Assembly (NCBI GenBank): GCA_046563655.1
Contig: CM102285.1
Coordinates: forward strand, 14,818,001 to 14,882,000
Direction of reading: 5' to 3'
Length of the DNA stretch: 64,000 nucleotides
DNA from: Yuukianura sp. NJ FZ-2021
Lineage: Eukaryota
Positions 194-4,300 of this stretch are shown in pieces (position 1 is the first letter of the stretch; every line of letters starts with the position of its first letter). A program made the position numbers and the translations under genes. The notes below the pieces were generated by a model. The model ran no database searches and was not told where the DNA came from. It saw nothing but the letters and a program-made list of their open reading frames with translations.

Positions 194-1394
194 ATGGGTA
201 AATTAAAATTTAAAATTAAATGAATTAATTGTTTTATAATAGTTTTTAATTAGTTTTAAAACTAATTAATTGTTCTAGGGGGTGATGAGTCTTGGGTGAC
301 ATTTGTGAGTGATGAAAGCGAGGCTTGGGCTTCCCTTGCTCTTGCGAGATCCATCAAGCGGACTTTCTCCACTAAAAAGTTGACGGCATTTGCAACTGAT
401 GCTGTCTCTCCTGCTCTCAAGTGAGTCTATTTAAATGTAAATTTAATTCACATTTAAATTAAATAAGTTAATTAAATAATTACGTTATTTTAATATATTT
501 ATATTTTGTTAGGTTTCTTCTGGAAGATGAATTTGACCTTGTAGTGACCGTGACCTCTACGGATCTGCGCTCTGAATCTCTGCACGGATCTTTGGCTAAG
601 ATTTTGTGCTGGAAGTTGGCTCCCTGGAACAAGTGTGTGTATGTCCATCCCAATTCTCTGGTAAGGTCAACGTCAAAGTTTTTGCAGGGTCAAAGTCAAA
701 CTTTTTGCTGGGTCAAAATCAAAGTAAAAGTATTTTCTTGACCAGGCTAAAAGTTTCTGCAGGGTCAAAGTCAAAGTCAAAGTTTTTGGTCAAAGTTAAG
801 AGATGACATTTAACCAACATTTTTGTCACAGGTTTTGGAAAACTGCGATGAATTGTTTCGAAAAGACGAACTGGCAAGTACTTCCGGGGATACTTTGTCG
901 CTTTTTGTGTTTCGTCCGAGTGCTAAAACGTTTTGGAGTCTGTTGCGTGCAGTTGAGAAGGGAAACTACGCTGATTTTGGAGAAGTTGTCCAGGAAAAGT
1001 TTCCAGGAATCAAGCGAAGAGTACTGGATGAAAAATATGGTGCTGCAGTGGGAGAAGAGGGAGTCAAAGTTGGGTAATGTTTAGAAATTTTTTTTTTAGT
1101 TTTTCAAAATCTTTCAAACTTTCCCAGTTTTCTTGATTTGGGCTTTTTCCTTTTCCAGGTCCAAGGGTCTCAAGCTGATCAACTTTGTTCAGCATCCTTG
1201 GAAAATGGACGGATCGAAGCAAAAGAAAATGGCGGAAGTAAACACCATTTTCGAAACTTACAACAAATAAGTTTCAAAATTTTATCGTTTTTATAATTTT
1301 GTTTGGTTCTAAAATTACTTTTTTGTAGAACTTTCTTTCCGTTTGGCATGAAATTTATTTCGGAGACGTTCTTCCGCTTGTTCAAAATTTGAAG
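194..1394 (+). other. N-terminal glycogenin-like (GT8 fold) pseudoenzyme domain, about 227 aa, exons 1-6 of the PKS gene
   Basis: Spliced translation MGGDESWVTFVSDESEAWASLALARSIKRTFSTKKLTAF...AKILCWKLAPWNKCVYVHPNSLVLENCDELFRKDELAS...FVFRPS...KLINFVQHPW...FLSVWHEIYFGDVLPL is colinear with glycogenin (AFVTL..[63 protein letters not shown]..WW.IF...VLPL). Confidence 0.85.
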
Positions 1395-4300
1395 GTAGGC
1401 AGACTCGCATCTCTGATAGTTGAATCATTAAATTCTTTCATTTTTCAAAATTTAAAATTATAATTATTATTTTTTTAAAAAAACTTTTTCAAAACACTTT
1501 TTTTTAGAAAACTGAAATTCGCCAAGCGTTAGTTGACTCTTTGGCTTCAAACGGCCTCCCACCAGGAACCTCTCCGCGTGACGCTCCAGAAATTCTGATT
1601 CCAGAAGAATTGTCCGACGCCGTGGCAATCGTTGGCATGAGTTGTCGTTTTCCCGGTGCAAATTCTGTTGCCGACTTCTGGAATTTTCTGATTGAAGGCC
1701 GAGATCCGATTCGGGAATACCCGGCAGATCGTCCGAACTACACCGACTGCCTCACTGACGACACTTACTTTGGAGCTGGATTTCTGACATGCCCAGTTGA
1801 CGAATTTGATGCTAAATTCTTTGGAATTAGTCCGCGTGAGGCTCCATTTGTGGATCCCCAGCAGAGACTTCTGCTGGAAGTGACTTGGGAGAGTCTGGAA
1901 GACGCTGGAATCAATCCGCACACGCTCAAGGAGTCTGACACTGGAGTGTTCATGGGCATTTGGCAACAAGACTACGATCGCTTTTTGCCCAACAAAGGCT
2001 TAAGTGCGAACGATTTTCATCATAGATACCTCGGAAACGCTTTCAGCGCCACGGCATCACGAATTTCGTACCATTTGGGGCTCAATGGACCGTCGCTTGC
2101 ACTGGAAAGGTCAGACACGCTGAATTCCAAAATGTTCAAATTCAGAAACCCCAAACTTCAAAATCCCAATATTCAGAAACCCCAACTTTAGATTTAGAAG
2201 CCCCAACTTTAGATTCAGAAACCCCAACTTTAGATTTAGAAGCCCCAACTTTAGATTCAGAAACCCCAACTTTAGATTTAGAAGCCCCAACTTTAGATTC
2301 AGAAACCCCAACTTTAGATTCAGAAACCCCAACTTTTAAAATGTCCTGATTTAGGAAACCCCGAATTTGAAAATGTCCCCAGATTCAGAAACTCCAACTT
2401 TGTCAACTTTAAAAATGTCCAAATTCAGAAACTCGTTTCAGAATACCTACTTTTTCTCTTTTTTTTCTAATTTCAAAATTTTGAAAAACTTGGAATTTTG
2501 ATTTTTGGTTTTCAGCGGTTGCTCGTCTTCAATGGGAGCGATTCACTTGGCCTGTCAGAGTCTGCGCCGTGGGGAAACAAATTTGTGCATCACGAGCGGC
2601 GTCAATTTGATTTTGATGATTTTGAATCCACTTTCTGGAGATGACAAGGACACGGTTGTGCTGTCCAACGACTATCGCTGCAAAACGTTTGATGAATGTA
2701 TGAACAATTTGCAAATTTTGAATTTTGAAACTTTCTTACAAAATTAAAATGCTTGGACATTTAAATGTTGACGTTCTGAATTTTTAGACTAGTACCACCA
2801 ATGAGATGAGAAATCTTCGCTTTGAATCGGAAGTTAATTGAATTCTTTAAAATTTTAGCGGCCGACGGATTCGTTCGTGCTGAAGGTTGCGGAGTTGCAA
2901 TTTTGAAGCGCTACGCAGACGCTTTGCGAGAAGGAGACAAAGTGCTTGCGCTGATTCGTGGATCAGCGCTCAACAATGATGGGGCTGGAACGAGTTTTGG
3001 AACTCCACACGCATGGGCACAGGAACGCGTCATTCGAGACGCTTTGGCTGATGCGCATGTCCATCCTTCTGAAGTGAGCTACGTCGAGGCCCATGGCACT
3101 GGAACGGTTGTTGGCGGTAAGCTTAAAATTTCGAAAACTCAAAAAGTTTTTCAAAAAACTTATAAAGGTAATAATTTTGGTAATTACTGTGCAAAAGTTA
3201 ATTAATTTGGTTAATTAGATCCAACGGAGATGTATGCCATAGGGCAGGTTTACTCTGAAGGAAGAGTGGATCCTCTGCTCGTCTCTTCCGTCAAGACAAA
3301 CATTGGACATGCGGAAGCAGCCGCAGGAATTGCAGGTAAAAATCACATTAATTAACAAAAAATTTAAACATTTAAATCAAGGTTTTTAGTACTTTGGAGA
3401 AGTAACTATTAAAAAAAAAAGTTGGAAATTCGAAAACTGTACTTTTTCTGAGAAGAAACAAAGTTTTTTGACTTTTTTTTTGTATTTCCATTTCCGCTTT
3501 CTCATGTAACTTTACTTTTTAGTTACTCCCTCCGGGAAGACATTGAACCTCCTCCTTCATTAACGTTTCAGTTTCAAACGTAATAATTTCACTCAAAATT
3601 TACAACTTTGTGTCAAATTTTTTACTTTTTCAAAAAAAAAAAAATCGCATCGTTTCAATTAACATTTCTTTGGTAAACGACCAAAAACATTTTTTTTTTT
3701 TATAAAATCCTTTCTTTTTTTCTAAAAAAAAAAGTCTTCGAAAAAAATTTATGAATTTTGGGACCACATCTCGTGTACAACTTAAGACTTATATTGAAGT
3801 TAGTTAATTTTTTAAACAATTTTTTGTTAGGCGTGATGAAGGTGATTTTGTCAATGAAAGCAAAAACGCTTCCGCCGCATCTTCATTTGAAAACGCTCAA
3901 TCCTAGGATAAACCTTGAAGCGATTCCAGCAATTATTCCAGTGCAGGCGACACCGTGGCCGACTCCTTCCAGCGGCGGAAGTCGAATCGCTGGAGTGAGT
4001 TCATTCAGCATGAGTGGCACCAACGTTCACATGATCATCCAAGAACCCCCTCAACCCCGTACCCCCTCAACCCCATCCGGAAAACCCCAAATGATTTCGA
4101 TCTCTGCCAAGTCGGAAGAAGCTTTAGAAGAGTTGCGGAAAAAGTACATGGACTTTTTAGCCGGAAATCCAGGAATTAACATTGACCAATTAGCGTTCAC
4201 TACGAATGTTGGACGAGCTCATTTGTCCAATCGCTTAGCAGTTGTGGGAAAAGACGTTACGAATCTGATTTCGAAATTGGAGAACAGAGGATATGTTACG

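Follow-up and report, generated by a model that had tools for sequence, protein, structure and literature searches.

The stretch analysed here, 64,000 nucleotides of contig CM102285.1 of Yuukianura sp. NJ FZ-2021 (hereafter the window, numbered from its first base), carries at its left end a forward-strand gene in which a domain resembling the animal protein glycogenin, of glycosyltransferase family GT8, appears to be spliced in frame onto a polyketide synthase (PKS). When joined by their coordinates, the six exons between 194 and 1394 give 227 codons from an ATG without a stop. Every intron of this part runs from GT to AG, and the GC fraction is 0.36-0.50 in the exons versus 0.11-0.36 in the introns. 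The intron at 1395-1507 is in phase 0 and splices to position 1508 (K-T-E-I-R...), from where the frame continues into the core of the ketosynthase (KS), VGMSCRFPG. An earlier note on this DNA had described the same six short, stop-free exons and their in-frame, phase-0 connection to the KS exon, and both descriptions hold. Its proposal that one chimeric gene begins with a domain of the glycogenin family is supported, as far as sequence can show, by the open frame together with the collinear matches to glycogenin structures described below.

The splice model of the whole gene comprises 18 exons and 9573 nt, or 3190 codons, with one stop only, at 14614-14616. It was built automatically and then corrected by hand, with three micro-exons and one false in-frame intron taken out, and the boundaries beyond 2109 are approximate. 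The synthase follows the order ketosynthase, acyltransferase (AT), dehydratase (DH), methyltransferase (MT), enoylreductase (ER), ketoreductase (KR), acyl carrier protein (ACP) and terminal reductase (R), that is KS-AT-DH-MT-ER-KR-ACP-R, and ends with the gene at 14616. The parts of the gene are listed below, together with those of L001, a related locus introduced in the next paragraph; a slash marks a splice junction.

194-197, + strand: exon 1, start-codon micro-exon (ATG+G) with donor GTAAAT; the L001 counterpart is ATGG/GT at 860-863.
279-420, + strand: exon 2, glycogenin-like residues 3-49, aligned to GYG1 3-46; 142 nt here and in L001.
513-660, + strand: exon 3, glycogenin-like; the former DxD motif reads H-P-N (D-A-N in L001); a Lys at the Lys86 position is retained; 148 nt in both.
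832-1073, + strand: exon 4, glycogenin-like, aligned to GYG1 107-160; sugar-binding motif degenerate and acceptor-loop region shortened; 242 nt (263 in L001).
1159-1237, + strand: exon 5, where the His212 metal ligand would lie; by eye the sequence there is L-I-N-F, with Asn in both species; 79 nt in both.
1329-1394, + strand: exon 6, the final exon of the GT8 part, stop-free, with donor GTAGGC; 66 nt in both.
1395-1507, + strand: intron 6, phase 0, free of ATG, the border between the host-type and PKS-type parts.
1508-2109, + strand: exon 7, a 36-residue linker and the N-terminal half of the KS; Pfam ketoacyl-synt, E 2.6e-45.
2516-3335, + strand: remainder of the KS, with model exons 2516-2697, 2859-3116 and 3219-3335 (approximate boundaries); Cys, His and His by eye, and Pfam.
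3831-5852, + strand: KS-AT linker, AT (GHS/VGE) and start of the DH, with model exons 3831-4600 and 4841-5852; Pfam Acyl_transf_1, KAsynt_C_assoc and PKS_DH_N.
6323-7226, + strand: DH; Pfam PS-DH, E 1e-21.
7571-9274, + strand: C-methyltransferase and structural KR subdomain; Pfam Methyltransf_12 and Beta-ketacyl_N; the false in-frame intron was merged here by hand.
9829-11602, + strand: ER and KR, with model exons 9829-10072 and 10271-11602; Pfam ADH_zinc_N and KR.
12275-14616, + strand: ACP (D-S-L) and terminal reductase, with model exons 12275-13211 and 13787-14616; Pfam PP-binding and NAD_binding_4.

Pfam also finds Ketoacyl-synt_C in the downstream open reading frame blocks.

Metagenome contigs were scanned with exon 4, and two loci were returned. 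One of them (L002) is a chance pattern match within a high-GC bacterial gene and was dropped. The other, L001 (2251 nt), has the same seven exons in the same phases and opens with the same ATGG/GT start micro-exon. The N-terminus MGGDESWVTF is identical in the window and L001, and the exon lengths of the GT8 part, 4/142/148/263/79/66 in L001 and 4/142/148/242/79/66 in the window, differ only by 21 nt, which keeps the frame. The KS exon of L001 starts directly after the AG, as it does in the window. Identical residues number 143 of 227 (63%) in the GT8 part, and for the linker together with the beginning of the KS the count is 57 of 77. Over 304 codons, the proportion of nonsynonymous differences (pN) is 0.224 against 0.712 for synonymous ones (pS), a pN/pS of 0.31; the silent sites are saturated. 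Among 1000 neutral simulations with an equal number of random changes, none gave a ratio as low as 0.31 and none remained free of stops (0/1000 each). When the alignment of the two loci was scored over shuffles, the exons reached z values of 5.7-16 and the introns 0-3.7, with 1.3 for intron 6. The conserved coding plan, the low pN/pS and the diverged introns thus indicate that the GT8 domain is kept by selection as coding sequence. Neutral evolution of the domain, which the earlier note had set against its own proposal, does not describe this comparison, in which the GT8 part is under purifying selection.

The earlier note suggested that the host part may also have provided the promoter; the 193 bases upstream of position 194 show no convincing conservation with L001, and a shared 10-mer of the kind found there arises at least once in 33 of 100 shuffles. 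The conserved N-terminal residues M-G-G-D-E-S-W are encoded by 194-197 and 279-295 in the window and by 860-863 and 941-957 in L001, and they would fit the N-myristoylation pattern of PROSITE.

The homology of the N-terminal part was searched exon by exon on unspliced translations (pieces of 22-87 residues), and the profiles used were two-sequence profiles made of the window exon and its L001 counterpart. Against PDB sequences, phmmer aligned the exon 2 peptide to GYG1 3-46 (E 0.32, or 0.047 with the profile), the exon 3 peptide to GYG1 74-104 (E 0.029; profile 0.0013) and the exon 4 peptide to GYG1 107-160 (E 0.24; profile about 0.012). For each of these three exons glycogenin-1 or -2 was the best or a near-best PDB match, and the matches are in collinear order. 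The list for the exon 4 profile is topped by a globin at 0.0044, above glycogenin; apart from it, the lists of the three profiles consist of glycogenin-1 and -2 entries. By our own arithmetic, which assumes independence, about 2e-17 PDB sequences would be expected to match all three profiles by chance. Other GT8 structures were not found among the PDB matches of the exon 2-4 profiles at E up to 10.

Exon 4 gave no match among 112 candidate proteins of 141-2000 residues. In a representative protein library its profile had three matches at E up to 0.001, namely P0121, P0122 and one bacterial repeat protein that was taken as chance; neither a canonical glycogenin nor a long annotated protein was among them. 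P0121 and P0122 are short exon-4-like fragments on other contigs, about 46-49% identical, whose similarity stops after …N-N-N-G. This breakpoint points to additional members of the family whose exon boundary differs there. No second GT8-like gene was seen in the window; a weak tblastn match at 18977-19189 (E 0.65) falls within a MAD-like coiled-coil gene and was set aside.

The catalytic residues are given in glycogenin numbering, with Asp102-x-Asp104 and His212 as the metal ligands and Tyr195 as the acceptor. Tyr15, Arg77, Asn133 and Asp104 are counted as ligands of UDP-glucose or Mn. The printed alignment of exon 3 with GYG1 places Asp102-Ala-Asp104 opposite H-P-N in the window, in agreement with the change from DAD to HPN claimed in the earlier note, and opposite D-A-N in L001. 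Neither sequence retains a DxD motif, and the Asp104 equivalent is Asn in both. Tyr15 is replaced by E in the window and R in L001, and Arg77 by S and L, respectively; Asn133 is T in the window according to the exon 4 alignment. Lys86 is the only UDP-glucose-ligand position that is kept, and it is present in both. The Asp160 equivalent is kept in the window and lost in L001, and the remainder of the sugar-binding motif differs between the two. The claimed replacement of GSFDGGDQG by GNYADFGEV agrees with the alignment up to the Asp and is not confirmed beyond it.

The position of His212 was located by eye, where L-I-N-F in the window and L-V-N-F in L001 stand against V-V-H-F of GYG1. This agrees with the claimed change from VVHF to LINF, which did not receive backing from the profiles of exons 5 and 6. 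The stretch around Tyr195, said to be absent, is about 11 residues shorter than in glycogenin, but a Tyr conserved in both species, within D-E-K-Y-G, persists nearby, 20 residues ahead of the His212 equivalent. The loss of metal-binding residues is upheld: the DxD motif is gone, and because each species lacks two or more of the three metal ligands, we read the domain as a pseudoenzyme. The GT8 part probably no longer transfers glucose. GYG1 and GYG2 are self-glucosylating glycogen primers of the GT8 family, with which the window domain is collinear over 3-46, 74-104 and 107-160 and shares the Lys86 equivalent. Unlike them, it has HPN for DxD, Asn for His212 (by eye), a degenerate sugar motif, an acceptor loop shorter by about 11 residues and no C-terminal tail, and it is fused to a synthase.

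The position of the first available start codon connects the two parts of the gene. Intron 6 lacks an ATG in both the window and L001, and in both the KS exon has no Met before residue 44, which lies within the VGMSCRFPG core. Exon 6 ends without a stop in both. Since no ATG lies in intron 6 or ahead of the KS core, the start codon of the synthase must come from the upstream exons, as had been proposed when the host-type exons were said to supply it, and this applies to both species.

The synthase itself is assigned to type I PKSs by its Pfam matches and by motifs read by eye: G-C-S-S-S, H-G-T-G-T and N-I-G-H in the KS, G-H-S-V-G in the AT and D-S-L in the ACP. The nearest relatives of the KS exon, looked for among proteins no longer than 2000 residues, are bacterial PKSs with 45-51% identity, and one fragment, P0038, with 72% also came up; PF01501 (Glyco_transf_8) is carried by none of the 120 listed relatives. 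P0211, a KS fragment from the same cluster as P0038 and about 64% identical, has a frame that is unbroken across the window's first two KS introns, so that some relatives appear to have fewer introns. With animal glycogenin matches on one side and bacterial KS relatives on the other, the gene would hold a metazoan-derived and a non-metazoan interval in one frame. Introns number 8.8 per kb of coding sequence in the GT8 part and 1.2 in the PKS part, which is consistent with an old host gene having been joined to a more recent acquisition. GC content at third codon positions is alike in the GT8 part, the PKS part and the neighbouring host genes.

In the KR, the catalytic Tyr is replaced by His (CAT at 11507-11509, within G-Q-S-N-H-S-A-A-N), a position held by Tyr in all eight aligned bacterial KRs; the catalytic Ser and Lys positions look intact by eye. 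The AT has an H-A-F-H motif in the region of 5150-5170, a motif that goes with malonyl-CoA specificity. The intron after the KS exon contains, at about 2150-2340, a tandem array of roughly 21-base units (…ccccaactttagatt…).

The neighbours of the fusion gene are ordinary animal genes:

16812-17480, - strand: 3'-5' exonuclease.
18931-26549, + strand: MAD-like coiled-coil gene.
28984-29745, - strand: GH20 hexosaminidase.
49334-50146, + strand: GST-like exon.
50922-52280, - strand: FIT/FITM2.

Among the open reading frames scanned in the window, neither a second PKS nor a tailoring gene appeared. The best named match of the neighbouring FIT protein is from the springtail Orchesella dallaii (53%), followed by a sand fly (43%); no identical protein was found. 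The host is accordingly springtail-like, but of a species other than O. dallaii.

An architecture of this kind has been catalogued in springtails. Kapoor et al. 2026 (PNAS, PMC13389597) define "HGT-chimeras" (HGT, horizontal gene transfer) in arthropods, and their Dataset S14 includes the Folsomia candida protein XP_035703129.1 (LOC110843357), with a metazoan GT8_Glycogenin interval at 6-111 and a PKS_KS/ketoacyl-synt HGT interval at 250-350. This entry supersedes the statement of the earlier note that no glycogenin-PKS fusion was known; with L001, the same architecture is now found in related DNA as well as in the springtail catalogue. According to the datasets (S4, S5, S6), the corresponding cluster 11 is at least 242 million years old and is represented by 22 genes in F. 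candida, 3 in O. cincta and 22 in O. dallaii. Its metazoan interval comprises three exons, the donor is inferred to be bacterial, and S9 names XP_035712442.1 as a non-chimeric relative (PMC13389597). The words "polyketide" and "glycogenin" do not occur in the main text of that paper, and no analysis of the catalytic residues was seen in its passages and datasets. A literature search pairing glycogenin or Glyco_transf_8 with polyketide synthase showed no title on a fusion among the papers listed. Within these parts of the published springtail work, the glycogenin-PKS architecture is catalogued but undiscussed (PMC13389597). Cluster 11 and the window gene share the order of GT8_Glycogenin followed by PKS_KS and a springtail host, and residues 6-111 span three exons in both. 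The window gene therefore probably belongs to this "GT8_Glycogenin + PKS" family, an orthology drawn from architecture alone.

Two other systems are comparable in part. For Folsomia candida, 30 clusters of type I PKS genes were reported, the majority flagged as horizontally transferred (Faddeeva-Vakhrusheva et al. 2017, PMC5490193); these too are bacterial-like genes in the genome of a springtail. Glycogenin is not mentioned in the main text of that paper or in two of its supplementary files. The gene oskar, in which a host LOTUS domain is joined to an OSK domain derived from bacteria (Blondel et al. 2020, PMC7250577), is likewise an arthropod gene with host and horizontally acquired parts in one reading frame. 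It differs in its domains and biology, the window gene being a dead host enzyme joined to a foreign megasynthase.

We consider it likely that the locus holds one chimeric gene of a springtail-like hexapod, in which a pseudo-glycogenin domain precedes a bacterial-type highly reducing type I PKS and is kept for a structural role. A host glycogenin gene would have been duplicated, and a foreign synthase would have been captured by splicing into or behind the copy. Such a capture would have given the horizontally acquired synthase an animal 5' end, and the dead domain would have been retained because it serves the synthase structurally. Most likely it would cap the KS dimer at the N-terminus, dimerising or scaffolding it, and so stand in for the bacterial docking element. 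Glycogenin is a dimer. The N-terminal docking and dimerisation elements of bacterial modular PKSs, which occupy the same place directly upstream of the KS, are short helical elements; their counterpart in the window is a predicted GT-A-type domain of 227 residues. It is conceivable, and we put this forward only tentatively, that the dead domain is a new functional N-terminal PKS module that dimerises, scaffolds or localises the megasynthase, and that its capture made the synthase usable in springtails before the expansion to about 20 copies per genome. Localisation could act through the conserved N-terminus M-G-G-D-E-S.

Several points weigh against this reading of the locus. The profiles of exons 5 and 6 (26 and 22 residues) did not find glycogenin in the PDB, and because these exons lack an independent match, the reading of His212 as Asn is by eye only. 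Pfam Glyco_transf_8 (PF01501), searched with single short exon peptides, was found in none of the five GT8 exons of the window and none of the five of L001. The gene model was read from genomic sequence, the dimerising role of the GT8 part is a conjecture, and the His in place of Tyr in the KR may mean that the synthase itself is impaired. In Dataset S12, the Folsomia representative is 34% ab initio, with the HGT interval supported and the metazoan interval unsupported, and cluster 11 is absent from part 1 of 3 of the RT-PCR (reverse transcription PCR) sheet S13 (PMC13389597). If intron 6 is retained, the frame meets a stop after 22 codons in the window and after 4 codons in L001, and a Met stands four residues inside the linker of P0211, so that translation of some family members may begin without the GT8 part. 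These last observations, together with the unsupported metazoan interval in Folsomia (Dataset S12, PMC13389597), would also be expected if there were two products, one a glycogenin-like protein encoded by exons 1-6 on their own and ended by read-through into intron 6, the other the synthase, transcribed separately from within or after that intron. We regard such an arrangement as unlikely: neither species has an ATG in intron 6, or in the KS exon ahead of the Met of VGMSCRFPG, from which the synthase could begin, and the phase-0 donor and acceptor pair and the stop-free end of exon 6 are conserved despite the divergence of intron 6.

The domain could also act in ways other than as a structural cap. 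A glycosyltransferase that is still active with unusual catalytic residues, and that glycosylates the polyketide, for example, has only fold-level similarity and the observed selection in its favour; it is highly improbable, as each species has lost at least two of its three metal ligands and the window and L001 do not share the sugar-binding motif. The sensor or anchor idea of the earlier note, under which the domain would still bind a ligand (UDP-sugar, glycogen or glycogen synthase) and link carbohydrate stores to polyketide production, would account for the purifying selection on the domain and for the Lys86 equivalent and glycogenin-like core kept in both the window and L001. However, neither species keeps the ligands Tyr15, Arg77 and Asp104 or, by eye, His212, and in the window Asn133 has become Thr. 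In glycogenin, the C-terminal tail binds glycogen synthase; this tail has no counterpart here, where exon 6 leads straight into the PKS linker, and we have little expectation of such a binding role. Equally doubtful is the view that the gene is a decaying paralogue of a large family, in which the fused domain has no current role in this copy. The His at the KR catalytic position, where all eight bacterial homologues have Tyr, fits decay, and so does the published family size of 22 copies in each of two species (S6, PMC13389597). On the other hand, the model runs through 3190 codons to a single terminal stop, the motifs of the KS, AT, ACP and reductase are, by eye, preserved, and purifying selection relative to L001 extends over the 304 comparable codons.

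Because the architecture was already catalogued, the value of the present locus lies in the dead active site, the conserved exon plan with its start micro-exon and the purifying selection. The case shows a route by which an animal may domesticate a bacterial megasynthase, with a duplicated host gene giving the 5' end and the start codon. The host part would then remain, under selection, as a domain that has lost catalysis. Such a conserved but inactive enzyme in front of a PKS offers an accessible test case for pseudoenzymes that gain structural roles.

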